A stretch of 29,037 nt of DNA from positions 1 through 29,037 of the IMG/VR virus record IMGVR_UViG_3300045988_046105. The stretch is one strand, 5' to 3'. Shown piece by piece: positions 283-26,914 of this stretch. Numbering within the stretch: the first letter of the stretch is position 1; the number at the start of each line of letters is the position of its first letter. The notes beneath the pieces were generated by a model. It saw nothing but the letters and a program-made list of their open reading frames with translations, had not been told where the DNA came from and made no database searches. The stretch is from a virus. Taxonomy: Duplodnaviria; Heunggongvirae; Uroviricota; Caudoviricetes. The position numbers and the translations under genes were made by a program.

Positions 283-283
283 A

Positions 284-740: not shown

Positions 741-748
741 CATGTCAC
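737..748. repeat. exact palindrome GTGACATGTCAC, copy 1 (14-mer TGTGACATGTCACG)
   Basis: Read directly; overlaps stop codon of 402..740 and lies in the 17-bp gap before the next gene. Confidence 0.9.
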
Positions 749-757
749 GAAGGTGTT

Positions 758-3778: not shown

Positions 3779-3855
3779 TGGCGTGGCATGCAGGATTCGA
3801 ACCTGCGACCAACCGCTTAGAAGGCGGTTGCTCTGTCCAACTGAGCTAATGCCAC
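3779..3855 (-). tRNA. tRNA-Arg (anticodon UCU), 77 nt, CCA encoded
   Basis: Hand-folded reverse complement GTGGCATTAGCTCAGTTGGACAGAGCAACCGCCTTCTAAGCGGTTGGTCGCAGGTTCGAATCCTGCATGCCACGCCA: 7-bp acceptor, 4-bp D stem, 5-bp anticodon stem, loop CUUCUAA, 5-bp T stem with TTCGAAT loop. Confidence 0.9.
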
Positions 3856-12460: not shown

Positions 12461-12924
12461 TGATCGATGTTCGAATTATTCCCGCCACCGAAGAGCATCT
12501 TCAGATGATTTTGCCGGATGTTCGTCAGGCTGATATTGACGAACTGTATGCGGTATCGCTGATGACTACCGAAGATGCGCTGCGTGTTGGTCTTCGCACT
12601 GCGACTATGGCCTGGTCAGGGTTCGCGAACGGAGAACTGGTAACCATGTTTGGTGTATCTCCGGCGTCAATGATCGGTGGCAATGGTACACCCTGGCTGG
12701 TCGGAACCAGCCGTATTGAAAAATATCAGAAGACATTTCTTCGCCACTGCCGACCTGTATTGCAGCAGATGCTGGCAGTTTATCCGCTCCTGGAAAACTA
12801 CGTCGACGAGCGAAACCATGTTGCCAAAGCATGGCTGCACTGGCTTGGATTCAGGCTTGAAGAAGCCGCGCCTTATGGTGCTCTTGGTCTTAATTTCCAC
12901 AGATTTCACATGGAGAGAAAATAA
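12460..12924 (+). CDS. hypothetical virion protein (gp13 position)
   Basis: 154 aa; ATG overlaps upstream stop; located between tail tube B and gp14-like gene. Confidence 0.5.
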   Translation: MIDVRIIPATEEHLQMILPDVRQADIDELYAVSLMTTEDALRVGLRTATMAWSGFANGELVTMFGVSPASMIGGNGTPWLVGTSRIEKYQKTFLRHCRPVLQQMLAVYPLLENYVDERNHVAKAWLHWLGFRLEEAAPYGALGLNFHRFHMERK

Positions 12925-13463
12925 TGTGTAACCCAGCCATCGCTTTGGTTGCCGTCACAGTGGCATCCACAGCCGCGTCAATGTACAGCCAGAGCAAGCA
13001 GGCAAAATACCAGTCAGCCATAGCTGATCGGAATGCTGAAATTGCTGAAGCTCAGGCACAGGATTCAATCAATCGTGGGAATATTGAAGCGGATCAGCGT
13101 CGTCGTGAAATGCGTCAACGCTCAGGCACTGCGGCGGCCACTATGGGGGCTACCGGTGCGGAATTAAGTAGCGGAACAGCTCTTGACGTTTTTGCGGATA
13201 ATGCTCAGTTCGGCACTCTTGATGCGTTAACGACAGTGAATAATGCTCAGCGTGAGGCATATGGGTATCAGGTTCAGGGAATGAATGCTCAGGCACAGGG
13301 GGCTGCTGCTCAGTCGGCTGCTAAATCATCGATGACCAGCACTTTGTTAACGGCACCACTAAAAGCATACGGTGCATACCAGATGGGCGGCGGAACGTGG
13401 AGCCCGTTCTCTCAGAAGGCTGCGCCGATTTCTGCTGCTGTTGGCACTCCAACCGGTCGATAA
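12924..13463 (+). CDS. internal virion protein B-like (T7 gp14-like)
   Basis: N-terminus MC..AIALVAVTVAS and C-terminus ...APISAAVGTPTGR resemble T7 gp14 termini (recollection). Confidence 0.6.
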   Translation: MCNPAIALVAVTVASTAASMYSQSKQAKYQSAIADRNAEIAEAQAQDSINRGNIEADQRRREMRQRSGTAAATMGATGAELSSGTALDVFADNAQFGTLDALTTVNNAQREAYGYQVQGMNAQAQGAAAQSAAKSSMTSTLLTAPLKAYGAYQMGGGTWSPFSQKAAPISAAVGTPTGR

Positions 13464-13475
13464 GGGGATAATAAG

Positions 13476-15989
13476 ATGCCAGTTGTACCAACAACATCGG
13501 GCCGTCAGGTTCAGAGCAGAGGGATTTCGACGCAGGGATTCTCATCGTTTCAGACACCAAATGTCGGTGATGTACTTGGCGATGTTGCAGAGCAATATGC
13601 AGGTATTATTGCGCAGGCAAAACAGCGTGCGAATGTTGCTATGGCTCAGGATGCTTCTCTTAGCTTAAGCCAGATAAGCAGCGATCTGCTGAATAACCCT
13701 GAAACAGGTTTGCTTAACCTGAAAGGGAAAAATGCTATTGGAAAAGGTCAGGAGTATACGCAGCAGTTTGATGCTCAGATCGAACAACTGGCTATGTCGC
13801 TGCCGGATGAACAGGCTCGTAATGCTTTCATGCAGCAGGCGCAGCAGCAGCGCATTCAGTTCACTACGCAGGCCGGGCGGCACGAGATATGGCAAATAAA
13901 TGCCTACGAAGAAGGCCAGTTTCAGGCTACGCTGCTGAACAATGGTAAAAATGCCGCAGCATTGTATGGCGACAACGCCGCATACGTATTGGCTAATAAG
14001 CAAACTTTCCAGCAAATTGAGGATTACGGCATTGCACATGGCTGGAGTGACGAGCAAATCCAGGCCAAGAAAATCGAGTTTAAAGAAGCAACAGCAAAAG
14101 CAACTGCTCAAAATGCTATTGGAGCAAACTATCTTCAGGTAAGACAGCAAAACGGCGAGTTAAGCGATACTGCTGCTGGTTCTCGCCGTGCTGTAGCAGA
14201 TAGTGGCTCTTCCGATCGTACCCGCGGTATACGCAACAATAACCCCGGCAATCTTGAATACAGCAAAACTAATCCGTGGGTTGGGCAGACTGGTGATGAT
14301 GGTCGCTTTGCCAAATTCGAAACCCCTGAACACGGTATTCGTGCATTAGGGCGGAACCTGATGTCGTATCAGCGGCAGGGTATTGATACCGTCAGCGAGA
14401 TAATTAATCGCTGGGCACCGCCTACTGATAAAAATGACACTATGTCGTATATCAAAGCAGTGTGCGAACAACTTGGCGTTTCTGCTGATGAGCCTCTCGA
14501 TGCATCAAATCCTGATACCCTGAAGGCGCTTTGTGCAGCCATTATCCATCATGAAAACGGTAGCCAGCCATACAGTGATCAGCAGTTAACTGCAGGTGTT
14601 AGTGCTGCGCTGGGGCTTTCTCAGCTACCGACAAAAAATAAACGTTATACCGGTGTAGCCTGGTTCGATGCTTTAAGTGAATCAGATCAGGCCAGCGTGT
14701 TGCGACAGACTGATGCACTAGCCAGACAACAGCAGGCTGAATATAAAACGATGCTCGACAGCCGGGTTCGCGATGCGACGGCTGCGTATATGCGTGGCAT
14801 TGAATTTCCTAACCCACCTGGTGAGGATGATTTTATTGCAGCTTATGGAGTCAGAGAAGGAAACCTGCGATATACCGAGTTTAAGAATACGCAGATCGCC
14901 GGACAGTATATAGGCTCTTTCCGCAACATGCCGACAAGCAGCATTACAGCATATGTTGAGCAATTACGCCCGGATACTGGTGATACAGGGGAGGGGTATG
15001 CGGCACGCGCAACTCTTTATGACAACGTTGTTTCGGCTGCAAATCAGGTGATAAAGCAGCGGCAGTCGGATCCTGTGCAGTTCTCTCTTGCCTCCGGACA
15101 GGCAAAGCCTATCGACATGAGCAATAAGGATAACTTTGGACAGAGCGTTGCCTTGCGTGCCGCTCAGGTCAGTGACCTTGCTAAGTCATATGGCACTCCA
15201 CTGACGTTCTTTTCCAAAGACGAGGCCAATCAGATCGGTGTTTTCTTTCGTGATGCGCCAGTTTCCCAACAGGCAGCATATCTCGATACCATCAGGCAGA
15301 GCACTGGTGGTGGGCAGGTGTATATGTCAGCACTACAGCAGATCAGTGCCAACGCTCCATCTGCTGCCGTTGCCGGGATACTGATGGATAAGCCTGGTGG
15401 TATTTTGGCAGAAAAAAACTGGTTTAATCCGGATGTTTCCGTGTCTCCTGAAACCGCTGCGCAGACAATTCTTGCTGGCGCGGCGGCTCGTAAAGGTACT
15501 GATGATGCGAAAGGTATTCCGATGCCTAAAGATGCTGATCTTCGCCTTGAGTTTTCTGACATGGTGAAGGATGCATTTGCTGGTGACGCTCAGGGCGCAT
15601 CAATGGCATACGAGATCGCAAAGGATTATTACGCTGGTGTGATGGCGAAAAAAGGCGTGGTATCAGGCGAAATTGACAATGATGTCTGGAAACAGGCTGT
15701 TAACGTAGCTACAGGTGGCGTGCATGACTATAACGGAATGGGGAATGTCCTTTTGCCGTGGGGAATGTCTGCAGAGCAATTCGATAAGCAGGTTAATCAG
15801 GCTTGGAATGAACAAGTTGTCGGCTCCGGGATAAAAACACCGCCTGGTCAGTATGGTTTGCAAAGTTACGGCGATAGTCAGTACCTGGTGAAACTTGGTA
15901 CTGGTTATCTGCTGAAAGATGATGGTTCTCCCGTTGTTCTTAATCTGACACAGAAGCGTCAGAGATTCTCCGGAGATATTCCGCAATGA
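13476..15989 (+). CDS. internal virion / ejection protein (gp15 position) with embedded NPGN-motif domain
   Basis: 837 aa, SD AAGGGGA; contains GIRNNNPGNLEY...WAPP...IHHENG segment (nt ~14200-14600). Confidence 0.55.
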   Translation: MPVVPTTSGRQVQSRGISTQGFSSFQTPNVGDVLGDVAEQYAGIIAQAKQRANVAMAQDASLSLSQISSDLLNNPETGLLNLKGKNAIGKGQEYTQQFDAQIEQLAMSLPDEQARNAFMQQAQQQRIQFTTQAGRHEIWQINAYEEGQFQATLLNNGKNAAALYGDNAAYVLANKQTFQQIEDYGIAHGWSDEQIQAKKIEFKEATAKATAQNAIGANYLQVRQQNGELSDTAAGSRRAVADSGSSDRTRGIRNNNPGNLEYSKTNPWVGQTGDDGRFAKFETPEHGIRALGRNLMSYQRQGIDTVSEIINRWAPPTDKNDTMSYIKAVCEQLGVSADEPLDASNPDTLKALCAAIIHHENGSQPYSDQQLTAGVSAALGLSQLPTKNKRYTGVAWFDALSESDQASVLRQTDALARQQQAEYKTMLDSRVRDATAAYMRGIEFPNPPGEDDFIAAYGVREGNLRYTEFKNTQIAGQYIGSFRNMPTSSITAYVEQLRPDTGDTGEGYAARATLYDNVVSAANQVIKQRQSDPVQFSLASGQAKPIDMSNKDNFGQSVALRAAQVSDLAKSYGTPLTFFSKDEANQIGVFFRDAPVSQQAAYLDTIRQSTGGGQVYMSALQQISANAPSAAVAGILMDKPGGILAEKNWFNPDVSVSPETAAQTILAGAAARKGTDDAKGIPMPKDADLRLEFSDMVKDAFAGDAQGASMAYEIAKDYYAGVMAKKGVVSGEIDNDVWKQAVNVATGGVHDYNGMGNVLLPWGMSAEQFDKQVNQAWNEQVVGSGIKTPPGQYGLQSYGDSQYLVKLGTGYLLKDDGSPVVLNLTQKRQRFSGDIPQ

Positions 15990-17788
15990 GTTACTTTGGC
16001 CTTAATCCAGTAAACCAGAATCAGCAGCTTGACGAAGCAGCATCAAATCCAGCTGGCTTTAACAGCGATGTTGGTTTTTTCGACAATGCTGTAGGAGCGG
16101 CATTGTCTGGTTTGTACTCCGGGCTGGTGGCAAAGCCAGATCAGTTGCTATGGGCAGGGATGGATAAAATCGTATCCCCGATTGCTCAGTTTGTTAACGA
16201 AAACACCTCGATCAATGACACTTCAGTTTCATACATTGCTGAGCAGAGAAAACTAGCAGAGCAGCAGGTTAAGCGGCTGACGCCTGATGCCGCGACAACC
16301 GGAACCGCCGGGCAGGTCCTTTATGGGTTGTTCGATATGGGCGGGCAGGCTGTTGTCGGTACAACGCTCGGTGGTCCGGTCGGAGGTGCTGCGGCGGTAA
16401 CTTCTCTACAGGGTTTTTCTGAGTTTGAACGGCTTACAGCACAGGGTGTTGATTTCAGGACGGCGCAGGAAGCGGGATTAGTGCAGGGTATTACTGCTGG
16501 TGCCGGAACACTGATCCCTATGAGCCTCGGGTTACGTGCTGGTGGTGCGCTGGCGGAAGGTGTGGCGGCTCAGCTTGCGCGGACGGGTGAAAGTTCAGTG
16601 CGACGCGCCGCAGCAACAGCAGTACGTGCAACGCCAGATATTGCCTATGCCGCAGGTACAAATATTGCGTTCGGTATGGCACAGCGTGGGCTTACTGCAA
16701 AAACGCTTCGTGATGGTGGCTATAGCGAAATGGCTAACCAGTATGATGTGTTGGATCGACAGGCAATTGCTATTGATGCTGTTCTTGGGGTGGCGTTTGG
16801 TGGTGTCGGCAGATTTATTAACTCTCGCGGCGAGTCTACAAGCGCACCAAATTTTTCACCAGTTGATATCGATGCTGCACTGGCGGCGAATGCCGCTCAT
16901 CATGCTGAAATTGATATTGCTCCCGGCGTGCCGATCAACGTGCTTTCGCGTAATTCGCACATTCAGGCTCTGCGAAAAGCCATGTCTGATGTTAGCCAGG
17001 GGAGACCTGTAGACGTTGCCAGCATTGTTGAGTCTGCATCTTTCAGTGAAATTCCTGGACGCAAGAGTCTGCTGTCTCAGGCAGTTAATGAGGCTCTGTC
17101 ATCTGTAGATGATGGAGTAACGGCGCGCGCTATAGAAAATCGGTTGCTTGAAGAACAGGCCGCGCAGCTTTTGCCGCGTGGCGATAGACAGGTTTACCAG
17201 TCTGAAATCGCTAATAGCCAACGAATTATTGAAAATCTCACTGAACAGCGCGCACAAATTCTTGCAGAAGATCCAGCCGGTAGCGGTAAGGCTTTATCTC
17301 GTGCTCGATCAGATAAACAGGCCAGACTTCGCGATATTGACCAACGAATCCGGCAGGCACAAGAACGCCTGGAATTTTCTCGTAACGCGTTGGCACCGCA
17401 TGAGCCTGGCGGTCAGTTTTTTGAAGCTCGAGCAGAACTGGCTCGGAGACAACAGGCAGAAAGTGAACTTAATGCTCAGGCTGTTTCATTCTATAAAACA
17501 GCAGAGGTCAGGACGCCAGACGAAGTATCTCCTTTTGAGCCTGATAAAATATTGCAACAGGCAGAACAAAAAATGATGTCAGATCAGGCAGGAGATATTG
17601 ATTTGCGCATAGCTGAAGACTCGCTGCTTGAATCACCTGACATGATAATCACCGTGCTGGATGATGATGGTAATCCACAATCGCGCAGTGCGCGTGAAGC
17701 ACTGGATGAAGCGAACAGGGAAAGTGAGCAGGCACTACAGGATTCCAGCCTGTTTGATGTCGCTGTGGCGTGTTTCTTGAGAGGTTAA
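15986..17788 (+). CDS. internal virion / ejection protein
   Basis: 600 aa, Ala/Gly-rich with coiled-coil-like C-half; overlaps upstream stop; position in ejection-protein block. Confidence 0.5.
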   Translation: MSYFGLNPVNQNQQLDEAASNPAGFNSDVGFFDNAVGAALSGLYSGLVAKPDQLLWAGMDKIVSPIAQFVNENTSINDTSVSYIAEQRKLAEQQVKRLTPDAATTGTAGQVLYGLFDMGGQAVVGTTLGGPVGGAAAVTSLQGFSEFERLTAQGVDFRTAQEAGLVQGITAGAGTLIPMSLGLRAGGALAEGVAAQLARTGESSVRRAAATAVRATPDIAYAAGTNIAFGMAQRGLTAKTLRDGGYSEMANQYDVLDRQAIAIDAVLGVAFGGVGRFINSRGESTSAPNFSPVDIDAALAANAAHHAEIDIAPGVPINVLSRNSHIQALRKAMSDVSQGRPVDVASIVESASFSEIPGRKSLLSQAVNEALSSVDDGVTARAIENRLLEEQAAQLLPRGDRQVYQSEIANSQRIIENLTEQRAQILAEDPAGSGKALSRARSDKQARLRDIDQRIRQAQERLEFSRNALAPHEPGGQFFEARAELARRQQAESELNAQAVSFYKTAEVRTPDEVSPFEPDKILQQAEQKMMSDQAGDIDLRIAEDSLLESPDMIITVLDDDGNPQSRSAREALDEANRESEQALQDSSLFDVAVACFLRG

Positions 17789-17793
17789 ATTAA

Positions 17794-20268
17794 ATGAGAC
17801 AGGAATGTATACAAGCGGTTCAGCAGGCGGCGCAGCGCATGTTAACGGCGCGAGAAATACAGAACATTGAAGACCGCATTTATCGAAATATGCGCTCCAT
17901 TGCTCGTGATGACCCTATGTCGTGGCGACAACTTTCCGAATCAGAGCGGCTATATCGAGCAGCACAATTGGCATCTGAAGAATTACAGCGAGAAGCGGCA
18001 TTAAAGAAACGTCGTGTGGCTCTCACTATAGCCGCGCGTCAGAGATTGGATAAATTTATCAATAGCTATCAAGGGGCTGATGGGAAACTTGGCGCTCTTA
18101 ACCGTACTATAGCTTTTAATGCAGACGGTAAATCTAATTTCCTCTCTGTTGAATCCAGAACAAAAGCCACCCGTGATTATGCATTGAGTCAATTGCAGGA
18201 GGCATTCGAAGCAGTTGATCCTCGCTTTTTTGGTCTGTTTGAAGATGAAGCGGGCGTACGTGACCTGGTATATGAAATGCGGGGGCAAAATACTGGCAAT
18301 GCTAAAGCAAGAAACGGTGCTAAGGCGTGGAGAGAAGTTACAGAGCTGCTGCGCCGCCGGTTTAATGATGCTGGTGGGGACATTGGCTATCTCGAAAACT
18401 GGGGGATCCCTCAACATCATTCTATGGAAAAGGTTGGGGCAGTATCAAAGGATAAGTGGGTTAGCGATGTTATAGGTAAGCTGGATCGCAAATATTATAT
18501 CCGAGCCGATGGACAACTGATGAACGATGCCGAGTTGTCTTCATTTCTTGGAGAGGCTTATAACACGATCGCTACTGGTGGGCTGAATAAGCTTACTGAT
18601 ACCGGAATGCGAATTTCCGGCGCACGTGCTAACCGTGGTAATGCATCACGACAGATACATTTCAAAGATGCAGATTCCTATCTGCAATATCAGCAACTTT
18701 ATGGCGATCGCTCTCTATGGGAAATCATGGTCGGTCACCTGGAAGGTATCAGTAAAGATATTGCACTGGTGGAAACATATGGCCCAAACCCCGATCATGT
18801 TTTCCGCTCTCTTCTTGATCAGGTGAAGGCAGAAACGGCAACAGCTAACCCGAGTAAAACCGGTAAAGTCGAGCGGCTGGCGAACAACACAGAGAATCTG
18901 TACAACTTTATTTCCGGAAAGACACAGCCTGTAGCGAATCCGCACATCGCGCGATGGTCTGACAATATCCGCAACTGGCTGGTTGCCAGCAGACTCGGAT
19001 CCGCGTTGCTGTCATCGTTCTCTGATCTTGGAACCATGTATCTGTCTGCGAAGGTTACCAACCTTCCAATGAACCAGTTATTCCGCAACCAGCTTGAAGC
19101 TATGGACCCAACGAACCGTACAGAACTTGCGCGGGCTCGCCGCGCTGGTCTGGCGATGGAATCTCTACTTGGCAGCGTTAACCGCTGGGCGATGGATAAT
19201 ATGGGGCCGTCAGTGTCTCGTTGGGCGGCAACGGCGGTAATGCGTGCCAGTGGGCTTACAGCATGGTCAGATGCGCACAAGCGCGCCTATGGCGTAACCA
19301 TGATGGGAAGCCTGGGAGAAGTAGTGTCACGGACACCAGACCTTCGTAGCCTCGATGACTCTGATTTTCGTATCCTGAAAAGCAAAGGGATTACTGACAC
19401 AGACTGGAGCGTATGGAAGCTGGCGAAACAGGAGGACTGGGGGAACGGTAATAATACGATGCTGACACCGGAAAGCATTATGCGTATCCCTGATTCAGCA
19501 GTTAAACATCTTGGTGAGCCTGAACGCGTGAAATTTGAGGCAATGCGTAAACTGCTCGGTGCCGTAACTGAAGAAGTTGATATGGCTGTTATTACACCGG
19601 GAGCACGTGAGCAACTGATAACCGGTTCTGGTATTCAGCGTGGAACATGGAAAGGTGAATTAACGAGAAGTGTTTTCCTGTTTAAATCGTTCCCTATCTC
19701 GGTTGTTATGCGTCACTGGTCACGCGCTATGGGTATGCCGTCTGCTGGTGGGCGTGCGGCATATATTGCGACGTTTATTGCCAGTACGACCATTCTTGGC
19801 GCTTTGTCGCAGCAACTTAACGACCTTGCGTCTGGTCGTAATCCTCGAGAGATGACAGGAGAAGATGCCGCAAAATTCTGGCTTGGTGCTCTACTGAAAG
19901 GTGGTGGTCTTGGCCTTTACGGTGACTTTTTATTGTCAGATCACACTAGGTACGGAAGCGGCGCGCTGGCGTCGATGCTTGGCCCGGTAGCTGGTCTGGT
20001 TGATGACGTAGTGAAGATTGCTCAGGGCATACCGTTAAATGCTGTGGAAGGGAAGAGTGAGCAGACTGGTGGTGATCTGGTGAAGCTGGGGAAAGGTTTG
20101 ATGCCTGGTGCGAATCTCTGGTACTTGAAGGCGGCTCTCGATCACATGATCTTTAACCAGATGCAGGAGTATTTTTCACCAGGCTATTTGCGTAAAATGG
20201 AGCAACGTTCGAAGAAAGAGTTTAACCAGACATACTGGTGGCGACCACAGGATGTCACTCCGCAATAA
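17794..20268 (+). CDS. internal virion protein D-like (gp16 position)
   Basis: 824 aa, SD GAGAGG; last large gene of virion block. Confidence 0.55.
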   Translation: MRQECIQAVQQAAQRMLTAREIQNIEDRIYRNMRSIARDDPMSWRQLSESERLYRAAQLASEELQREAALKKRRVALTIAARQRLDKFINSYQGADGKLGALNRTIAFNADGKSNFLSVESRTKATRDYALSQLQEAFEAVDPRFFGLFEDEAGVRDLVYEMRGQNTGNAKARNGAKAWREVTELLRRRFNDAGGDIGYLENWGIPQHHSMEKVGAVSKDKWVSDVIGKLDRKYYIRADGQLMNDAELSSFLGEAYNTIATGGLNKLTDTGMRISGARANRGNASRQIHFKDADSYLQYQQLYGDRSLWEIMVGHLEGISKDIALVETYGPNPDHVFRSLLDQVKAETATANPSKTGKVERLANNTENLYNFISGKTQPVANPHIARWSDNIRNWLVASRLGSALLSSFSDLGTMYLSAKVTNLPMNQLFRNQLEAMDPTNRTELARARRAGLAMESLLGSVNRWAMDNMGPSVSRWAATAVMRASGLTAWSDAHKRAYGVTMMGSLGEVVSRTPDLRSLDDSDFRILKSKGITDTDWSVWKLAKQEDWGNGNNTMLTPESIMRIPDSAVKHLGEPERVKFEAMRKLLGAVTEEVDMAVITPGAREQLITGSGIQRGTWKGELTRSVFLFKSFPISVVMRHWSRAMGMPSAGGRAAYIATFIASTTILGALSQQLNDLASGRNPREMTGEDAAKFWLGALLKGGGLGLYGDFLLSDHTRYGSGALASMLGPVAGLVDDVVKIAQGIPLNAVEGKSEQTGGDLVKLGKGLMPGANLWYLKAALDHMIFNQMQEYFSPGYLRKMEQRSKKEFNQTYWWRPQDVTPQ

Positions 20269-20487
20269 AAGGAGATATGATAGTTCAAATAACTTTTATT
20301 GTACTAATATGTGCAGCGTTTTTATGCTATTCATACATTTTGATAAAAATGGGTTTCAATTGGAATCTCTGTTGCGTGCAGCGGCATGGTTCGGCTTTGT
20401 AGTATTCGGAATTGTATTGTTCGGAAGAATAATAAAATAACTAGTTAATTTGTGGATTGGTGCTGTTTTTCCATGATAGGGGTAATT

Positions 20488-20868
20488 ATGAGAAAAGTAT
20501 TTTTGATTTTTGGATTTATGCTTCTCGTTGGATGCCAGTCAGCTGCACAGTTTGAAAGAAATATGCTTACGTGGCGCGGGCAGAGTATAGACGCAATGGT
20601 TCAGCAGTGGGGGTATCCTCAGGGAGAGCTTACATCTCCAGATGGAAACAGAGTGTATGTTTACTCAAGCTCTGGTAGTTATAACGTACCACAAACCACA
20701 ACGTATAATACTACGTCTAATCTAATTGGTAATACTATATATTCAAACACATACGCAACAACTGATGGCGGTTATACACTCCATTTCAGTTGCTCTGTTT
20801 ACGTTGAGTTTGGTGCTGATAAGATTATTAAAAATGTTACATGGCGCGGTAATAATTGCGTTGCGTGA
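20488..20868 (+). CDS. lipoprotein (moron; candidate superinfection-exclusion / receptor-masking factor)
   Basis: ATG 20488 with AGGGG SD; signal peptide MRKVFLIFGFMLLVGC with lipobox LVGC; AT-rich gene unlike flanking virion genes; stop inside palindrome copy 3. Confidence 0.6.
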   Translation: MRKVFLIFGFMLLVGCQSAAQFERNMLTWRGQSIDAMVQQWGYPQGELTSPDGNRVYVYSSSGSYNVPQTTTYNTTSNLIGNTIYSNTYATTDGGYTLHFSCSVYVEFGADKIIKNVTWRGNNCVA

Positions 20869-20876
20869 CATGTCAC
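20865..20876. repeat. exact palindrome GTGACATGTCAC, copy 3 (14-mer in inverted orientation, CGTGACATGTCACA)
   Basis: Read directly; overlaps lipoprotein stop codon. Confidence 0.9.
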
Positions 20877-20901
20877 AGGCCGCTTTCGCGGCCTTGTTTT
20901 T
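20877..20901 (+). terminator. intrinsic terminator of lipoprotein gene
   Basis: AGGCCGC-TTTC-GCGGCCT followed by TGTTTTTA. Confidence 0.6.
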
Positions 20902-21061
20902 AACGAATGCCACCGCCACCCGGGCGGGAATCCGCAGAACGCCCACCGCAGCGGGAGCCGTCAGCAGCAGTGTCGCTGTCGTGCTGACAACGACCGGCAA
21001 AGGCCTGAGTTGAAGCTACCAGAGACAACAAAACGAACAGTGCAGCAAATGCTTTTTTCAT
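20900..21061 (-). CDS. small secreted Cys-containing peptide (53-aa precursor; ~31-aa mature Gly/Arg/Asp-rich peptide)
   Basis: Internal ATG 21061 gives MKKAFAALFVLLSLVASTQAFA-GRCQHDSDTAADGSRCGGRSADSRPGGGGIR: classic signal peptide with AxA site, two Cys, E. coli-like codons. SD is weak. Confidence 0.35.
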   Translation of the reverse strand: MKKAFAALFVLLSLVASTQAFAGRCQHDSDTAADGSRCGGRSADSRPGGGGIR

Positions 21062-21133
21062 TGTTAAATTTCCATCTATAAGCCACCTCAATGTGGCGTT
21101 AATGAGTGTAGCACTGACTTTTGTTTCGTCCAC

Positions 21134-21154
21134 AAAAAAGCCCGCAGCGCGGGC
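21134..21154 (-). terminator. intrinsic terminator directly after stop of 21155..21694
   Basis: Minus strand: GCCCGC-GCU-GCGGGC followed by UUUUUU. Confidence 0.6.
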
Positions 21155-21694
21155 TTACCAAAACTTGTACCACGGGGATTTATCCTTCAATGGACAATCC
21201 TTCCATCGTGTGGCCAACCATTCATATTCTTTAAAATATGTGTTTATGTTTTCTTTTTCTCTAATGGCTTGTATAAGAGGTAGCGCAATCTGATAGTTAT
21301 TTACAACGGAGCTGTAAAATACTTCCTTAATCATGGTCTCATCATAAGTTTTCCGCTTCACGCTCACAGCCATGCGTTCGTAGAAACCTAGACAGTAAAT
21401 TATTTCTCTCTTCTCTGTCTTTTCTTCATCCGTAAGATCAGCCTGCCCATTGCTTGGATACATATAAGAGCGGAATGATTTGTTCGATTCGTGAATGCGG
21501 CGCATAGTAGATAGGCCTTTCTTATAATCTACATCAAACCTGCTTTCACCAAGGAATACTGAAGTGTGTACTTTTCTCGCTGTATTTACATTATAAATAA
21601 TAGTAGCGATAGCTATGAACAAGCCAAGCGAAACCGCGACTGCACTTACGATTTGAGCCACAGCCATGGCAAATTGCATTTCTTCACTTAACAC
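21155..21694 (-). CDS. membrane-anchored protein with ~150-aa predicted cytoplasmic domain (candidate exclusion/abortive-infection factor)
   Basis: GTG 21694 with GGAGA SD 6 nt upstream (alternative ATG 21679). One long N-terminal TM helix followed by basic residues. AT-rich. No family recognised. Confidence 0.55.
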   Translation of the reverse strand: MLSEEMQFAMAVAQIVSAVAVSLGLFIAIATIIYNVNTARKVHTSVFLGESRFDVDYKKGLSTMRRIHESNKSFRSYMYPSNGQADLTDEEKTEKREIIYCLGFYERMAVSVKRKTYDETMIKEVFYSSVVNNYQIALPLIQAIREKENINTYFKEYEWLATRWKDCPLKDKSPWYKFW

Positions 21695-21711
21695 AAACTG
21701 TCTCCAGACAT

Positions 21712-21735
21712 GAAAACGGGGCCTAATGGCCCCGT
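21712..21735 (-). terminator. terminator-like hairpin (candidate attenuator) immediately upstream of RBS of 21155..21694
   Basis: Minus strand: ACGGGGCC-AUUA-GGCCCCGU then UUUCAUGU, followed 8 nt later by GGAGA and the start codon. Confidence 0.4.
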
Positions 21736-21753
21736 CATTAAACTATCCGAATG

Positions 21754-21786
21754 TTAAACGCCTTCGTACTCGTCAAATTTTCTCAT
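21754..21786 (-). CDS. candidate leader peptide MRKFDEYEGV (10 aa)
   Basis: ATG preceded by AGGAGGAG at 5-nt spacing; ends 18 nt before the attenuator-like hairpin. Could be coincidental. Confidence 0.2.
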   Translation of the reverse strand: MRKFDEYEGV

Positions 21787-21822
21787 GTGGGCTCCTCCTG
21801 TATCGGTGCCTAATCGCTATGG

Positions 21823-21839
21823 ATCACCCGTGAGGTAAT
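21823..21839. promoter_or_regulatory. operator-like palindrome ATCACC-CGTGA-GGTAAT (site S7) overlapping predicted -10/+1 of the 21155..21694 promoter
   Basis: Read directly; minus-strand promoter TGTACA-N18-TACTAT predicted by eye. Confidence 0.4.
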
Positions 21840-21870
21840 AGTAAGCTATTCACCTGCAATCTGTACAGAA

Positions 21871-21895
21871 TTATTTAAAGGCACATCCCTGTGCC
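21871..21895 (-). terminator. intrinsic terminator after Bro-N gene
   Basis: Minus strand: GGCACA-GGGA-UGUGCC followed by UUUAAAUAAUU. Confidence 0.45.
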
Positions 21896-21903
21896 GCCGC
21901 CCG

Positions 21904-22596
21904 TCAGAAGAACCCTGCTTTGTCGTTGATGTACTCCGCGTGCGTCTGGATATCACGCAGGCATTTGCTCACACCAACGATGTAGCAGAACATGGTGGTC
22001 AGCTCCGCCGCCGCGCCCGATACATCGTGCCCGTCTTCCTGTAACTGGTTCAGCAGATTCATCAGCAGTGAGTTTTCCGTCAGGCCGAGAACACCAGACG
22101 GCGAGTGAATCAGGCTGCGGTAGCCGGGCTTCAGTGGGGCGCTGTAGGTTTTGTTCTCTATCTTCATTGCCTGCATCACTGCTGATGCTGTGGCGTTGGC
22201 TACCTGGTCGGCAACCATCTTTATGCGTTCTTCCTGCGGGAGCGAGTTTTTAATGTAACTTCCGGTGCGGCGGATCTGAGGAAGAACCTCACCTGTAACC
22301 CATTCAAGAAATCTGAATGCTCTCGTTCCCTCAGTCATTGCCTCTTTGCAACGCAGAATAAGGATGTAGAGACCTGATTCTGAAACGATGGATAGTTCTT
22401 GTATTCCACCAGGGGTCTGTATTGAATACAGCCCCTTTTTGTTCCAGCCTTTTTTATCAAGTTTTCTCGCTTGTGTAACATCAATATTCAAAGCATTGCA
22501 CACATCTTTGGTGACAAACCAAGGTTCTCCGTCAATCATGAACATACGGATCTGGCAGGATGACTCAAAGGAAAAGATGGAAGGTTTGGTATTCAT
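21904..22596 (-). CDS. Bro-N domain protein with distinct ~80-aa C-terminal domain (antirepressor-like)
   Basis: ATG 22596 with AAGGTGA SD (track ORF extends to 22641 via non-ATG start). N-terminus FESSCQIRMFMIDGEPWFVTKDV...GLYILILRCKEAMTEGTRAFRFLEWVTGEVLPQIRRTG matches the Bro-N pattern (recollection); C-terminal domain is paralogous to 23743..24000. Confidence 0.75.
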   Translation of the reverse strand: MNTKPSIFSFESSCQIRMFMIDGEPWFVTKDVCNALNIDVTQARKLDKKGWNKKGLYSIQTPGGIQELSIVSESGLYILILRCKEAMTEGTRAFRFLEWVTGEVLPQIRRTGSYIKNSLPQEERIKMVADQVANATASAVMQAMKIENKTYSAPLKPGYRSLIHSPSGVLGLTENSLLMNLLNQLQEDGHDVSGAAAELTTMFCYIVGVSKCLRDIQTHAEYINDKAGFF

Positions 22597-22745
22597 GGCG
22601 ATCACCTTTGTAGTTAGGTTAATCACCACCGCTGAGACCAATCAGATGGTGGTGAACTGTGCAGAGTTGGTCTTACCGGCTACAAAGGAACCCGGCGCAC
22701 CTTTCGGTGCCCCCACACAGCCCACCATAGAATAGGTGCGCTTTA

Positions 22746-22843
22746 CACATAAAAAAACCGCTTATGCGGCATATGTGCCTCTGTAGTAATCCGGGAGACC
22801 AATCCCGGCACTGGATTTTGCCAGTGCCCGATTACTATGGCAC
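22746..22843 (-). ncRNA. structured 5' leader / candidate small RNA upstream of Bro-N gene, ending in hairpin plus U7
   Basis: Nested helices: GTGCC(22775-79)/GGCAC(22839-43) and GTAATC/GATTAC enclose two stem-loops (CCGGGA-N6-TCCCGG; GGCACTGG-N6-CCAGTGCC); then CCGC-N4-GCGG plus U7 (22751-22769). The 69-aa ORF over this region has no ATG and spans promoter elements. Confidence 0.35.
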
Positions 22844-22862
22844 AAGAGGAGTGCGATGTAAA

Positions 22863-22879
22863 TTTACCGCAAAGGTAAT
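22863..22879. promoter_or_regulatory. operator-like palindrome TTTACC-GCAAA-GGTAAT (site S1) overlapping -10/+1 of predicted Bro-N promoter
   Basis: Read directly; minus-strand promoter TTGATT-N18/19-TATCAT predicted by eye. Confidence 0.45.
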
Positions 22880-22955
22880 GATAAGCGCGGATAAATATTA
22901 AAATCAACCGTATTTGGTTGATTGCGTTTAACGCTTGATCACCTGAAAGCAAGAT

Positions 22956-22972
22956 ATTACCTTTAAGGTAAT
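22956..22972. promoter_or_regulatory. operator-like palindrome ATTACC-TTTAA-GGTAAT (site S2) just upstream of RBS of 22992..23720, plus half-site ATCACC-TGAAA at 22938-22948
   Basis: Read directly; perfect 6-5-6 dyad. Confidence 0.45.
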
Positions 22973-22991
22973 GTTATTGTGAGGAAAAGCA

Positions 22992-23720
22992 ATGGAAGTT
23001 TTCTGGATAGTTGTTGGTGTGGTTGCGGTGATTATTTACGTTATCAACCAGAACAAGACTAAGATCTCTGATCGTACGGTCGTTAATCATAACAAAACGA
23101 TAAAGACCGAAGATGGGGAGATAACGATTAATCGTACACAGGTGATAGAACACACCTCTACTCAGTTTCAAAAAACTGGAGGTAATGCGCCTAATATTTC
23201 CGCACCTCCTGCTTATGATAGTGCGGTAATCCAGACATATTATAAACAGCAGGAGTTAGCAAAAGAGAGGCAACTGATTCAGCCAAAGCCGTTTACAGCT
23301 GAGCTTCCACCTGGAGTGTCAATGCGTCCGGCATATCATGGAAGATTCCCTGGTGATGACATATCGTCTCAGTCATCTAAAAAAGCACCTCAGGCAGTAT
23401 CAGAGCCAGCAAGAATACCTTCTGTATCGCCGCCAAAAGAAGAATCAGCTAACAGAGTTTCAAGTGGTAGCAAGCAGTGCTTGCGATGCAGAATAAACCT
23501 ACCATATGAAAAATTCAGGAAATCGTCAAAAAATCCAGATGGATTGACTAAGTGGTGTGCAAGGTGTCTCGATGGCCCAAAGAATACACGCCATATGAAG
23601 TGGTGCCCAATTTGTAATGTCCGCAGAAAACGAACAAGCTTTTACCCTAATAATCAAAATGCGGATGGCTTAATGGCATGGTGCAAAACGTGCTGGGACG
23701 AGCACAAAGCGAAACGATAG
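22992..23720 (+). CDS. membrane-anchored protein with Pro-rich linker and tandem C-terminal zinc-ribbon-like repeats
   Basis: SD GAGGA 6 nt upstream; N-terminal TM helix; two repeats of C-x2-C-x17/18-(P/A)DGL-x3-WC-x2-C (CLRC...PDGLTKWCARC and CPIC...ADGLMAWCKTC). Confidence 0.6.
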   Translation: MEVFWIVVGVVAVIIYVINQNKTKISDRTVVNHNKTIKTEDGEITINRTQVIEHTSTQFQKTGGNAPNISAPPAYDSAVIQTYYKQQELAKERQLIQPKPFTAELPPGVSMRPAYHGRFPGDDISSQSSKKAPQAVSEPARIPSVSPPKEESANRVSSGSKQCLRCRINLPYEKFRKSSKNPDGLTKWCARCLDGPKNTRHMKWCPICNVRRKRTSFYPNNQNADGLMAWCKTCWDEHKAKR

Positions 23721-23744
23721 GCCGCTCTTGCGGCCTTTAAATTT
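23720..23744 (+). terminator. terminator hairpin between convergent genes
   Basis: GGCCGC-TCTT-GCGGCC followed by TTTAAATTT. Confidence 0.5.
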
Positions 23745-24000
23745 ACCGGGTTTGTTTTCGTAATTGTTCGGCACAATAGTCGAGATGTGTTTGCAGATCC
23801 CGCATAGACATCTGTGAGCTGGTGACGTAGTTAATCAGTGCAGTCAGTTCGGCAAGTGGGCCATCGACATTAAATCCATCCTTATCGAGATCCCGGAGTA
23901 ATTTCATCAAGTGCGATCCCTCCACCAGTGACCTGACGCCTCCCGGCGTGTGAATCCTTTCGGTAAATCCGTCTTCCAGTGGATAGTGATACCGCTGCAT
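23743..24000 (-). CDS. small protein (85 aa) paralogous to the C-terminal domain of the Bro-N protein; predicted SOS-inducible antirepressor-like factor
   Basis: ATG 24000 with GGAGA SD 8 nt upstream (track ORF starts further upstream at a non-ATG). Roughly 45 percent identity by eye to the Bro-N C-terminal region. LexA-box-like palindrome 22 bp upstream. Confidence 0.6.
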   Translation of the reverse strand: MQRYHYPLEDGFTERIHTPGGVRSLVEGSHLMKLLRDLDKDGFNVDGPLAELTALINYVTSSQMSMRDLQTHLDYCAEQLRKQTR

Positions 24001-24021
24001 CTTATCTTCTCCATGCAATAA

Positions 24022-24037
24022 CTGTATATTTATACAG
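24022..24037. promoter_or_regulatory. LexA (SOS) box CTGTATATTTATACAG overlapping predicted -10 of the small-gene promoter
   Basis: Matches CTGT-N8-ACAG with AT-rich spacer (consensus TACTGTATATATATACAGTA); sits on a TATAAAT -10-like element of the minus-strand promoter. Confidence 0.65.
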
Positions 24038-24075
24038 TAGCAAATAATTTGTTTGCTATCCAGCACGTTTTGCAA

Positions 24076-24092
24076 ATTACCTGAAAGGTAAT
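24076..24092. promoter_or_regulatory. operator-like palindrome ATTACC-TGAAA-GGTAAT (site S3); half-site TTTCAGGTAAT at 24132-24142
   Basis: Read directly; perfect 6-5-6 dyad between the small LexA-box gene and the tailspike gene. Confidence 0.45.
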
Positions 24093-24195
24093 ATCTATTC
24101 GTATTTACAGCCTTTTTATCCATATGTGGTTTTTCAGGTAATAGAATAACCAGATATGCGGCGCAACGGGTGCTGCGACTATCTGGAGATTTAAC

Positions 24196-26325
24196 ATGAC
24201 GGTCTCAACCGAAGTTGACCACAACGAATACACCGGTAACGGCGTTACGACATCGTTTCCGTATACTTTTCGAATTTTCAGAAAATCAGACCTGGTTGTT
24301 CAGGTGTCTGACCTGAACGGGAACGTAACAGAATTGGTCCTGGATACCGGTTATACGGTAACTGGGGCGGGCACTTATAGTGGCGGTTCTGTGGTTCTTC
24401 CGTCTCCGCTTGCTACTGGCTGGCGAATTACGATAGATCGTGTGCTTGATGTAGTGCAGGAGACAGACCTTCGCAATCAGGGAAAATTTTTCCCCGAAGT
24501 GCATGAAGATGCCTTTGACTACCTGACGATGCTGATCCAGCAATGTTTTGGGTGGTTCAGACGTGCATTGATGAAGCCCTCTCTGCTTGCAAAATATTAC
24601 GATGCAAAGCAAAACAGAATTTCTAACCTTGCAGATCCATCACTTGAGCAGGATGCTGTAAATAATCGCTCAATGCGTAATTATGTCGATGCTGCAATCG
24701 CCGGGGTTGTTGGTGGTTTTGGTTGGTTTATTCAGTATGGTTCTGGGGCTGTGTACCGAACGTTCCAGGATAAGATGAGAGACACCATTAGTGTTCGTGA
24801 TTTTGGTGCAAAAGGAGACGGCATAACAGATGATACTGTAGCAATTCAAAATGCTATTAATGCAGTACCAGAAGGGGCTATACTTGGATTTTATGGTGGT
24901 GAATTTGTTTTTGATAAGGTTGAATTGTTTAAGCCAATAACATTAGTTGGTGATGCAACGTTAATTCACAACGGATTTAGAATAAAATCTAGCAGAATCC
25001 GATCACTTTTATCTGGCGTTCAGAAATGCAAGGATTACTCCGAGTCTTCAAGAGCATTTTATTGCTATGCAAATGAAGACCAAAGAGATTATGACGATAT
25101 TCAGATTTTATTTAATAGATTTGAAGGTTTCTTTTACTCTACGGCATTTGTTGCAAAAAACTATTATTTGGAGAATGACCCTAATTCAAGAATTGTCAAA
25201 AACACAAAAGTAATAGGGTGTACATCAGTTGCTCCTGATTCTGTAAATGCCGGTCATTTTCAACATATAGGCGTTACAAATGCTGAAACATCACATAACT
25301 CAACTTATGGCGGACAAAATGCAACATCATACAACTTCATTAACCAGAATGGATTTGTAAGGATTATAGGAAATTATGACCATAACAATAGCTATGGTTC
25401 ATGTGAGCTTGAGAACTCAATGGTGAGTAACTCAGTCATATCAGGTAATACGTTTTCGTCATATTTATGGGTGGATGATACAAGTAATGTTACTATTTCT
25501 GGAAATACCGTTTCATCAAGGATCAAAGTAACATCGCAAACTGACGATGTTCATAATATAACCATATCAGCAAATACCACAAAACGGATTACTATAGAGC
25601 AATTTGGAGAATCGCCGACAGGTCTGGTATATGGTGCATTAATTTCCTGCAACACTATTACTGGCGACAGTGATGGAAGTTCAGACATTTTATGTGCGTC
25701 ACTTGTTACAGGTGAAATTTCATCAAATTATTGTCATGGATCAGAAAAAAATATATCAATTGTCCGCCTGGATTCTTCTGATATAACTGTTAGAAACAAT
25801 AAAGGAAACAAAGGATTACTTACAATAAGTAACGATGGTGGAAGGATAATTGAATATGGCAATGATTCTATGGTTCTGTCTGGAAGCATAGATAGCAGAC
25901 ATATACATAATTTATTACATCCAGACACATCGTATTTAGACCTACCGGGGAAATATCTGCACGGAACTAAATATACTGGCAGTATCCCCCCCGGTTCCAC
26001 AGGAACTGTATCACTTCAAATACCATCAGGGGCAAGCCTTGTTTTCAGGGGCGTTTCTATATGGGTTCTAATTAGAGATGTTAGCAATAACAATATATCG
26101 TCATTCAGAATTGATGGTTCATATAGAGTTGTTGGTGGAAGTGTTGGTCTTAGTTTTGCTGATGCTTATTCGAAACTCGGGGTGGATGCAAACTCTATAA
26201 CAGTGTCAAACAATAACAGCACTTCTGGCAATATCAGCATAGCAATTAAAAACACAGATTCATCAAAAACCCTTCAGGTTACTGTTATGCCGGAGGTTTC
26301 AAGCAGGTTAGGTATTGAGGAATAG
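24196..26325 (+). CDS. tailspike protein with beta-helix (pectate-lyase-like) receptor-binding/depolymerase domain
   Basis: 709 aa, SD TGGAGA; conserved-looking N-terminal module then DFGAKGDGITDDTVAIQNAI motif typical of right-handed beta-helix glycanases; C-terminal two-thirds AT-rich with Asn/Ser/Thr-rich repeats. Confidence 0.85.
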   Translation: MTVSTEVDHNEYTGNGVTTSFPYTFRIFRKSDLVVQVSDLNGNVTELVLDTGYTVTGAGTYSGGSVVLPSPLATGWRITIDRVLDVVQETDLRNQGKFFPEVHEDAFDYLTMLIQQCFGWFRRALMKPSLLAKYYDAKQNRISNLADPSLEQDAVNNRSMRNYVDAAIAGVVGGFGWFIQYGSGAVYRTFQDKMRDTISVRDFGAKGDGITDDTVAIQNAINAVPEGAILGFYGGEFVFDKVELFKPITLVGDATLIHNGFRIKSSRIRSLLSGVQKCKDYSESSRAFYCYANEDQRDYDDIQILFNRFEGFFYSTAFVAKNYYLENDPNSRIVKNTKVIGCTSVAPDSVNAGHFQHIGVTNAETSHNSTYGGQNATSYNFINQNGFVRIIGNYDHNNSYGSCELENSMVSNSVISGNTFSSYLWVDDTSNVTISGNTVSSRIKVTSQTDDVHNITISANTTKRITIEQFGESPTGLVYGALISCNTITGDSDGSSDILCASLVTGEISSNYCHGSEKNISIVRLDSSDITVRNNKGNKGLLTISNDGGRIIEYGNDSMVLSGSIDSRHIHNLLHPDTSYLDLPGKYLHGTKYTGSIPPGSTGTVSLQIPSGASLVFRGVSIWVLIRDVSNNNISSFRIDGSYRVVGGSVGLSFADAYSKLGVDANSITVSNNNSTSGNISIAIKNTDSSKTLQVTVMPEVSSRLGIEE

Positions 26326-26401
26326 CATCATATATAATTATTTTAATGTTAATGCCGTCTTCTTGTTGGCGGCTTATTTGTGAAAATCGAATGAGTTATT
26401 T

Positions 26402-26701: not shown

Positions 26702-26914
26702 CTGCTACCGCGCCATTTGATGGTGCGGAATTCAACTAATCCTCTATATTTTGAATCATTTCTGTACTGCAATCTCTTCAGAGTTATGTAAAAGGCAAGC
26801 CTTATTATCGACATGAAAGGAAGGGGATTGACAATACATGGGTAACAAAAAACCATAAATGGTTTATCATGCGTAATGCCTTTACTATTCAGGAGGTAGT
26901 TATGCATATAAACG

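Follow-up and report, generated by a model that had tools for sequence, protein, structure and literature searches.

The window analyzed here, a stretch of phage DNA of 29,037 nucleotides, encodes an 837-aa protein in whose interior the initial annotation placed a discrete conserved domain. The question that this locus raises is what the domain is and at which step of infection it may act. By sequence and predicted fold, the segment is a separately folded catalytic domain of the Enc34-type (PHA02564) endolysin family. It is probable that the domain is a peptidoglycan glycosidase of this type, carried as a linker-delimited cassette in a gp15-like virion protein, that cleaves murein at entry. 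The features on which this reading draws are collected in Table 1.

Table 1. Coordinates of the gp15-position gene, its domains and residues, and the neighboring virion genes in the window.
Feature	Position	Strand	Evidence or remark
T7 gp14-family internal virion protein gene, directly 5', defines the gp15 position	12924..13463	+	PF24072 T7_gp14; phrog_418
gp15-position virion protein gene, 837 aa	13476..15989	+	ORF list; ortholog of epsilon15 gp15
N-terminal helical scaffold module, aa 37-226	13584..14153	+	AlphaFold helices, pLDDT >90
Flexible linker 1, aa 230-246, G/S/D-rich; bounds the cassette on its 5' side	14163..14213	+	pLDDT <50
Enc34-type (PHA02564) predicted muralytic domain, aa 247-378	14214..14609	+	segment flagged by the initial annotation
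NPGN motif N256-P257-G258-N259, N-terminal loop of the domain	14241..14252	+	conserved in Enc34 too
W313, equivalent of Enc34 Trp79, in RWAPP	14412..14414	+	aromatic in 70/71 copies
Y325, equivalent of Enc34 Tyr95	14448..14450	+	invariant in alignment A1; 64/71 virion-type copies
E360 in HHENG, equivalent of Enc34 Glu131 (proposed catalytic)	14553..14555	+	71/71 copies
Linker 2, aa 379-394; bounds the cassette on its 3' side	14610..14657	+	pLDDT ~70 dip at aa 381-390
C-terminal scaffold module, mainly helical, aa 395-830	14658..15965	+	shared more widely across the family than any other part
epsilon15 gp16 ortholog, large virion protein	15986-17788	+	phrog 'virion structural protein'; synteny
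epsilon15 gp17 ortholog, large virion protein	17794-20268	+	phrog 'virion structural protein'; synteny

The phage is a Uetakevirus, an epsilon15/phiV10-like temperate podophage of E. coli, rather than a T7-like phage in the strict sense, as had first been assumed. The gene order matches epsilon15 genes 11-17, and the gene itself shares 92-99% DNA identity with phiV10-like phages. A Shine-Dalgarno sequence (AAGGGG) is read 8 nt 5' of its ATG, and on the minus strand of 14200-14600 the ORF list contains no frame of 80 aa or more competing with it. The product matches phrog_992 over its full length and is 56% identical, also over its full length, to epsilon15 gp15 (AAO06078.1), its direct ortholog at the same genome position. 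The gp15 position named in the initial annotation is borne out by the gene directly upstream, which matches Pfam PF24072 T7_gp14 (E=8.2e-8; 32.8 bits, cutoff 27) and whose phrog is described as 'internal virion protein'; a phrog_308 gene of the same description also precedes the gp15-position gene. The genes across 15986..20268 match phrog_1145 and phrog_684 ('virion structural protein'), and their products are presumed to be partners in an ejection or tail-hub apparatus.

In the full-length AlphaFold model (pLDDT 89.7), a compact globule at aa 250-378 lies between two low-confidence linkers. Both flanking modules are A/Q-rich, helical and confidently folded, which does not fit the earlier description of the carrier as otherwise low-complexity. 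All motifs first quoted for the segment fall within the same ORF: RTRGIRNNNPGNLEY (aa 248-262, nt 14217-14261), WVGQ (aa 268-271), RALGRNLMSYQRQGIDTVSEIINRWAPP (aa 289-316, nt 14340-14423) and IHHENG (aa 357-362, nt 14544-14561). Together with homology and the compact predicted globule, this upholds a discrete conserved domain at 14200-14600. The possibility of a coding or low-complexity artefact was rejected on the grounds of homology and the high-confidence fold. The domain is also the best-conserved part of the protein relative to epsilon15 gp15, at 86% identity; for the C-terminal third the figure is only about 25%, and the proteins are therefore mosaic.

The identity of the domain is established by comparison with solved structures. 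In a PDB sequence search, it matched Gp29 of a Kayfunavirus (9vvp) with E=8.6e-39 and 52% identity over 159 aa, and phmmer aligned aa 248-368 with chain residues 6-140 of the Enc34 endolysin in the PDB (7q47, E=2.1e-17). A profile search of the PDB gave 1e-45 for 9vvp and 1.2e-30 for 7q47. At the sequence level, the similarity to both is far beyond chance. The predicted fold is helical and alpha-lobe-like, as in 7q47, so that a wall-active fold, the point on which the initial annotation had staked its proposal, is indicated by both sequence and predicted-fold homology to the Enc34/M4Lys catalytic domain. With the domain as query, 2213 homologs were recovered from 5.8 billion proteins, and some belong to families named 'tail length tape measure protein' and 'tail injection transglycosylase'; the full-length protein retrieved only near-identical E. 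coli prophage copies from the same collection. No family, SLT (PF01464) included, was found by Pfam at E<=1 in the 837-aa protein, and scans with Pfam and NCBIfam gave no match for the whole protein or for the domain alone, because the family has no model in those libraries. Literature searches returned nothing relevant on an 'NNPGN' motif and no mention of 9VVP.

Conservation of the predicted active site was assessed in 71 diverged copies of the domain from large virion-type proteins. Enc34 Trp79, Tyr95 and Glu131 map by alignment to W313, Y325 and E360, the last of which lies toward the C-terminus of the domain, on the helix that corresponds to alpha5 of Enc34. In the N-terminal loop, N256 and P257 are retained in all 71 copies, G258 in 70 and N259 in 69. 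In Enc34, the aromatic Trp79 is proposed to position the substrate, and the catalytic role of Glu131 is a proposal from superposition on GH73 and GH23 enzymes (PMC8943055). The Enc34 engineering paper mentions neither Glu131/E131 nor a mutation, and no mutant of the proposed catalytic Glu of the family was found in the literature. Homologs of the domain are nevertheless active enzymes: Enc34 ORF39deltaC and M4LysdeltaTMD have muralytic activity on Gram-negative peptidoglycan (PMC8943055, PMC7143992), and the Enc34 domain lysed E. coli, P. aeruginosa and H. alvei whose outer membrane had been permeabilised (PMC8943055). For epsilon15-like gp15 proteins, this one included, a literature search found no activity assay. 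The domain might instead be non-catalytic, with its enzymatic activity lost and only a peptidoglycan-binding or purely structural role retained. Its location inside a large structural protein would be consistent with this, as would the fact that bound sugar was not visible in Enc34 crystals (PMC8943055). Yet the diverged copies all retain the proposed catalytic Glu, the Tyr and Trp are strongly conserved, the domain is more conserved than any other part of the protein and, as described below, the alternatives found in its slot are catalytic families. Loss of activity is accordingly very improbable.

If the domain is an enzyme, the bond that it cuts has to be considered. M4Lys releases N-acetylglucosaminidase-type products from muropeptides, with apparent endopeptidase products as well (PMC7143992), and the Enc34 domain is a glucosaminidase according to its authors (PMC8943055). 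It is speculation, prompted by the M4Lys products, that the Enc34-type domain could be bifunctional, combining a glycosidase with a D-Glu-mDAP endopeptidase. Alternatively, the domain may act at entry as a lytic transglycosylase in the manner of T7 gp16, cutting the MurNAc-GlcNAc bond to yield 1,6-anhydro-MurNAc, rather than as a hydrolytic N-acetylglucosaminidase. The GenBank record of epsilon15 gp15 reads 'putative lytic transglycosylase', from an HHpred match to SltB (4anr), a different enzyme class from that suggested by the closest solved homolog; a literature search on Uetakevirus and transglycosylase found nothing relevant. In favor of a transglycosylase, the Enc34 fold has a Glu/Tyr/aromatic signature common to GH23 lytic transglycosylases and GH73, its domain is described without the beta-lobe of the lysozyme fold (PMC8943055), and true SLT domains occupy the same slot in scaffold homologs. 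However, Pfam SLT does not match this domain, though it is readily detected in those homologs, and the Glu-bearing helix of Enc34 has a circularly permuted position compared with GH23 and GH73 (PMC8943055). Moreover, the only product analysis in the family, that of M4Lys, points to cleavage of the N-acetylglucosaminidase type (PMC7143992), as does the conclusion of the Enc34 authors (PMC8943055). A transglycosylase is thus an unlikely reading, and a glycosidase of the Enc34 type remains preferred.

A comparison with T7 gp16 shows likenesses and differences. Its SLT (GH23) domain has the job proposed here, in which a muralytic domain carried by an ejection protein makes an opening in the murein for a DNA conduit (PMC8954989); T7 mutants in this transglycosylase show their defect at 20 °C or lower and on stationary-phase cells. 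Both domains place a single catalytic Glu, predicted in the present case, on a lysozyme-like alpha-lobe. They nevertheless belong to different families: the core helices follow a permuted order, the carrier here is gp15-like, and the bond specificity is probably different. The catalytic Glu of T7 gp16 (E37) lies in the N-terminal part of the SLT domain, whereas here it is near the C-terminal end. The initial annotation had anticipated a module analogous to the T7 gp16 transglycosylase yet different from it, which agrees with the Enc34-type homology and the unmatched Pfam SLT.

The family members characterised so far, Enc34 ORF39 and BSPM4 M4Lys (PHA02564; 7q47), are endolysins, and the domain could in principle act late in infection to lyse the host, as it does in Enc34 and Chivirus phages, and not at entry. 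Those lysis proteins are of about 230-260 aa and consist of an N-terminal domain followed by a two-helix transmembrane anchor. In contrast, the domain here is internal to an 837-aa protein of the structural module, in which a Kyte-Doolittle scan found no strongly hydrophobic 19-residue segment comparable to the C-terminal TM domain of Enc34, and lysis is assigned to a separate GH19 enzyme. The window contains a complete lysis cassette at ~26.9-28.7 kb, comprising two holins, a GH19 endolysin and an Rz-like spanin, with the GH19 gene between holin and spanin genes. Because the phage has this cassette of its own, the domain is not the lysis enzyme; that reading was rejected, and a role in host lysis is extremely improbable. 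The arrangement is that of a virion-associated peptidoglycan hydrolase, with a predicted muralytic domain on a structural-module protein, separate from the lysis endolysin.

The domain most likely breaches the cell wall during DNA injection. We infer the activity of this copy, its bond specificity, its periplasmic delivery and its role in entry along the following steps. The 837-aa protein would be assembled into the particle alongside the gp14-like, gp16-like and gp17-like proteins and would arrive in the periplasm on infection. There, the domain would cut murein glycan strands locally, with E360 as the general acid and W313 and Y325 placing the substrate. The bond cleaved would probably be GlcNAc-MurNAc, by analogy with the homolog M4Lys, and the trans-envelope DNA conduit could then be built through the resulting hole in the murein.

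Precedents for a wall-degrading module on such a protein, as envisaged in the initial annotation, come from several phages. The closest solved relative of the domain is found in the gp16 equivalent of Kayfunavirus (K1F/PE3-1/ST31-like), Gp29 of 9vvp, a protein of 1295 aa annotated as 'internal virion protein with endolysin domain'. The likeness lies in the same domain, in a podophage of Enterobacteriaceae, and in the virion-internal nature of Gp29. In Kayfunavirus, a T7-like lytic phage, the gp16-position protein begins with the domain, in the place that SLT has in T7. The present phage is temperate and epsilon15-like, and its domain is found midway along the gp15-position protein; outside the domain, the two proteins are unrelated. 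The gp15-like ejection proteins of K1E, K1-5 and SP6 have lysozyme activity and, as described, offer a precedent for a lytic module on a gp15-position protein (PMC8954989). Further precedents are the SLT and GH108 domains in the same slot of the scaffold.

Whether the carrier is itself ejected is a separate issue. It may be a component of the external or central tail hub (tail tube), with the lytic domain displayed at or through the tail tip like tail-associated lysins, and no ejection taking place. Neither the N- nor the C-terminal module resembled T7 gp15 or any other solved ejection protein in sequence or fold, so the label 'ejection protein' draws on gene position and literature. Genetic work on epsilon15 by Guichard et al. 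in 2013 reportedly placed gp15 in the central tail tube or hub and not in the internal core, with gp17 likewise assigned to the central tail tube. PMC12391199 summarises Guichard et al. (2013) as assigning gp15 and gp17/16 to the packaging/injection device. The occurrence of the domain in the tape measure and tail injection families noted above also fits a tail hub. On the other hand, the gene lies directly 3' of the T7_gp14-family and phrog_308 'internal virion protein' genes, epsilon15 is among the podophages with identified gp14/gp15/gp16 homologs and a core stack has been noted (PMC8954989), and the Kayfunavirus homolog is in a gp16-like core protein, present as four chains in 9vvp. A tail-hub location without ejection is therefore a minority reading, and delivery as part of an entry apparatus is favored.

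A single podophage ejection-protein scaffold takes at least three muralytic families (Enc34-type, SLT and GH108) in one slot. Among 50 scaffold homologs without an Enc34-type domain, 29 carry SLT and 15 carry GH108, placed at aa ~233-400, and the contigs of these homologs have the same gene order. Homology of the query to the SLT- and GH108-bearing proteins is broken at aa 219-394 and restarts at aa 392-395. In one SLT-bearing homolog (P0249), aa 24-218 are 34% identical to the N-terminal module, and homology ends at aa 218, ahead of an SLT cassette at aa 219-374 of P0249. A broader proposal holds that the epsilon15-like gp15-like scaffold has a linker-delimited socket (aa ~220-395), that at least three muralytic families are swapped there by recombination and that the choice among them is adaptive. 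The exchange of families is shown by the comparison above; the proposal as a whole is improbable. One may speculate that murein modifications that stop muramidases and lytic transglycosylases might be no obstacle to a GlcNAc-cleaving Enc34-type cassette.

Among 5426 complete E. coli genomes, 340 have this DNA segment, whose product is a 'hypothetical protein' or 'bacteriophage protein' in the records listed; in phage records it appears as 'head protein', 'virion protein' or 'structural protein P5'. The domain is thus an ordinary, though poorly annotated, feature of a known family of phage cell-wall enzymes, and the current understanding of podophage entry is unchanged by the finding. It suggests that the label 'lytic transglycosylase' on epsilon15 gp15 be corrected. 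Virion-borne Enc34-type domains are predicted to act on Gram-negative murein without a membrane anchor and are therefore candidate building blocks for engineered lysins. A scaffold that accepts three wall-degrading domains extends the idea of the 'mosaic ejection protein', and a common prophage gene acquires a specific, testable function through its link to the Enc34 family, whose structure and biochemistry have been characterised.

Every motif quoted for the flagged segment lies in one 837-aa protein encoded by window ORF 13476..15989 (+). Its ATG is preceded by an AAGGGG ribosome-binding site, and the opposite strand has no ORF of at least 80 aa over 14200-14600. The gene shares 92-99% DNA identity with phiV10-like Escherichia phages and ~73-75% with Salmonella phages epsilon15 and PAT1, all Uetakevirus, that is, temperate podophages. 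The ortholog in epsilon15 is gp15 (56% identity, full length), and the gene neighbourhood parallels epsilon15 genes 11-17. The label 'gp15 position' is justified, because this gene order, including a T7_gp14-family gene directly upstream, matches that of epsilon15. The phage itself belongs to the epsilon15-like group and is not T7-like in the strict sense. A tRNA-Arg gene (anticodon TCT; window 3779-3855, -) has the terminase-region ORFs on one side and the portal gene on the other.

Features of the window and of the gp15-like protein (nt, window; aa, 837-aa protein)
Feature	nt	aa	Strand	Remark
Tail protein, 823 aa	9989-12460			phrog_376
Internal virion protein, 154 aa	12460-12924			phrog_308; epsilon15 ortholog annotated acetyltransferase-like
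179-aa protein	12924-13463			Pfam T7_gp14, PF24072, E=8e-8, 32.8 bits vs cutoff 27
gp15-like protein with flagged domain, 837 aa	13476-15989		+	
Disordered N-terminus		7-42		pLDDT <50
Long-helix module		37-226		AlphaFold2 prediction
Linker		230-246		pLDDT <50
Motif RTRGIRNNNPGNLEY	14217-14261	248-262	+	
Compact globule (the domain)		250-378		AlphaFold2 prediction
N256		256		71/71 diverged copies
P257		257		71/71 diverged copies
Motif WVGQ		268-271	+	
Motif RALGRNLMSYQRQGIDTVSEIINRWAPP		289-316	+	
W313		313		aromatic in 70/71 diverged copies
Y325		325		64/71 diverged copies
Motif IHHENG	14544-14561	357-362	+	
E360		360		71/71 diverged copies
pLDDT dip		near 381-390		AlphaFold2 prediction
Large, mainly helical module		395-830		AlphaFold2 prediction
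Large virion protein	15986-17788			phrog_1145
Large virion protein	17794-20268			phrog_684
Ant-like anti-repressor gene	21904-22641		-	
242-aa protein	22992-23720			zinc-finger/endonuclease VII/Lar-like repeats
Tailspike, 709 aa	24196-26325			
Holin-family gene	26915-27328			phrog_198
Holin-family gene	27315-27623			phrog_217
GH19 (chitinase class I-like) endolysin	~27613-28242			overlaps end of second holin gene
Rz-like spanin	28239-28721			

The initial annotation described a discrete domain between low-complexity flanks. AlphaFold2 modelling of the full-length protein (88-sequence alignment; mean pLDDT 89.7, pTM 0.62) agrees with the first part, predicting a discrete globule between the linker and the pLDDT dip; the flanks are A/Q-rich, not low-complexity, and confidently folded. 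With a model of aa 235-395 (42-sequence alignment; pLDDT 88.8, pTM 0.81), the sole significant Foldseek match is the wall-active 7q47 (E=8e-11, TM 0.72), the catalytic domain of the Hafnia phage Enc34 endolysin. A PDB sequence search matched two proteins, 7q47 (E=2.1e-17) and 9vvp 'Gp29' (1295 aa; chain residues 3-151, E=8.6e-39). The Enc34 domain belongs to family PHA02564 and can lyse E. coli, P. aeruginosa and H. alvei cells whose outer membrane has been permeabilised. Its fold is all-helical, like the lysozyme alpha-lobe. Compared with GH73 and GH23 enzymes, the core helices show a circular permutation, and Glu131, Trp79 and Tyr95 superpose on the catalytic and substrate-positioning residues of these enzymes (PMC8943055).

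Alignment maps Enc34 Trp79/Tyr95/Glu131 to W313/Y325/E360. Conservation at these positions in 71 diverged domain copies (50%-identity cluster representatives, mostly large virion-type proteins) indicates that the putative active site is under selection in the virion context. Enc34-family homology and fold, together with the lack of a Pfam SLT match, uphold the proposal of a wall-degrading module different from the T7 gp16 transglycosylase. The domain could nevertheless, though less probably, be a lytic transglycosylase rather than a glucosaminidase; in GenBank, epsilon15 gp15 is annotated as a 'putative lytic transglycosylase' (HHpred match to SltB). Against this stand the Pfam result and the sole product data in the family: the homolog M4Lys yielded N-acetylglucosaminidase-type and possibly also endopeptidase products in HPLC-MS (PMC7143992).

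As a lytic module the Enc34-type domain has spread widely, under product names that do not agree with one another, and PHROGs with the same stretch include 'endolysin', 'tail injection transglycosylase' and 'tail length tape measure protein' families. Matches to the domain occur in 747 phage records of very different virus types, among them small Microviridae genomes ('P5-like structural protein'; for example MG945180, Microviridae sp.), Vibrio phage records of 10-14 kb (for example PQ189306, Vibrio phage 10N.239.311.D05_PE001), Pseudomonas JBD5-like phages (for example NC_020202, Pseudomonas phage JBD5), Burkholderia phage Bp-AMP3 (HG796220) and Chivirus endolysins.

When 1.84 billion representative proteins were searched exhaustively with phmmer, 12,852 relatives reached E<=1e-3, of which 6,729 reached E<=1e-10. 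Among the best 150, 119 have at least 650 aa; the Enc34-type domain is present in 58 of these (nearly always at aa ~235-480) and absent from 61, proportions that are not representative because the list is skewed to the query's own domain. A Pfam scan of 50 of the 61 domain-less homologs detected SLT in 29 of them and Glyco_hydro_108 in 15, at aa ~233-400. An SLT-bearing homolog (P0249) aligns with query aa 29-218 at 34% and 395-837 at 49% identity, leaving aa 219-394 uncovered, and the alignment of a GH108-bearing homolog (P0284) starts at query aa 392 and continues onwards. Contigs of such homologs encode a large tail protein, a ~145-aa protein (with an acetyltransferase match on one contig), a ~172-aa protein and then the scaffold gene, the same order as in the window. 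Together, the alignments, Pfam matches and gene order indicate that three muralytic families, Enc34-type, SLT and GH108, occupy one slot of one scaffold, the helical modules flanking the domain. This is strong comparative evidence that the slot serves murein cleavage. A non-catalytic domain is unlikely, given this exchange, the presence of E360 in all 71 copies and the strong retention of Y325 and the W313 position. Other arrangements occur: P0386 (1337 aa) has two Enc34-type copies (aa 87-203 and 700-814), and in P0300 (869 aa) the domain forms the very C-terminal end (aa 736-866) and does not occupy the slot in mid-protein where it is usually found.

The scaffold itself is mosaic. Relative to epsilon15 gp15, aa 37-540 show 69-86% identity, the domain being best conserved (86%) and the adjoining modules reaching 69-73%; the last ~300 residues (aa 541-837, window 15096-15989) show ~25%. 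With a 935-aa variant that is common in E. coli prophages, the query has only ~70% of its length in common, at 95-97% identity. This unevenness places a recombination boundary near aa 540-580.

Action of the domain in lysis is unlikely, since the window has a complete separate lysis cassette (26915-28721) of holin, GH19 endolysin and spanin genes. Moreover, Enc34-type endolysins are membrane-anchored, whereas a Kyte-Doolittle scan of the 837-aa protein finds no strongly hydrophobic 19-residue segment. Action at entry is favored by the shared slot, by the domain being the segment best conserved against epsilon15 gp15 and by the comparison with 9vvp Gp29, to which the domain is 52% identical and nearer than to the Enc34 endolysin. 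Gp29 is the counterpart of the Kayfunavirus (K1F-like Autographiviridae) gp16-position protein, also of 1295 aa and labelled 'internal virion protein with endolysin domain', 'internal virion protein D' or 'DNA ejectosome component', which begins with the Enc34-type domain, in the place that the SLT domain takes in T7 gp16.

We infer the activity, bond specificity, delivery route and timing of this copy as follows. The gp15-like protein would be built into the virion alongside gp14-like, gp16-like and gp17-like proteins and arrive in the periplasm upon infection. There the linker-tethered domain would cut glycan strands, probably at the GlcNAc-MurNAc bond; E360 would serve as the general acid, and W313 and Y325 would hold the substrate in position. 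The resulting opening in the murein would admit the DNA conduit. A parallel role has been described for the N-domain of T7 gp16. The protein may alternatively sit in the central tail tube or hub, to which genetic work on epsilon15 reportedly assigned gp15; the absence of detectable similarity between the scaffold and T7 gp15 or any solved protein is consistent with that location. Against it, a review lists epsilon15 among podophages having gp14/gp15/gp16 homologs and a core stack (PMC8954989). From either location the enzyme could be brought to the murein.

Window 20000-27000 has a G+C of 0.36-0.47, compared with ~0.50 elsewhere. Many tail fibre and tailspike families match the first ~166-230 residues of the tailspike (the extent depends on the family); few match the rest, a pectate-lyase-like beta-helix. 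The lowest G+C, 0.358, is reached distally within the tailspike gene, which suggests horizontal acquisition of the receptor-binding part.

The family, fold and activity of the Enc34 domain are known from publications, annotations and a deposited structure (9vvp) already document the domain on podophage internal virion proteins, and the literature treats muralytic modules carried by gp15-position proteins as a theme. The sources searched appear not to record that the epsilon15/phiV10 gp15 domain belongs to the Enc34 family and not to SLT, nor the Enc34-type/SLT/GH108 exchange in this scaffold. The initial interpretation is correct, and its interest lies mainly in annotation and modularity. Segment 14200-14600 is found in 340 of 5426 complete E. 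coli genomes at 80-100% identity, almost always on the chromosome (prophage), and the listed records name the product 'hypothetical protein' or 'bacteriophage protein'. The Enc34-type domain is modelled in neither Pfam nor NCBIfam, hence the annotation gap in E. coli prophages for what is a structurally characterised enzyme family.
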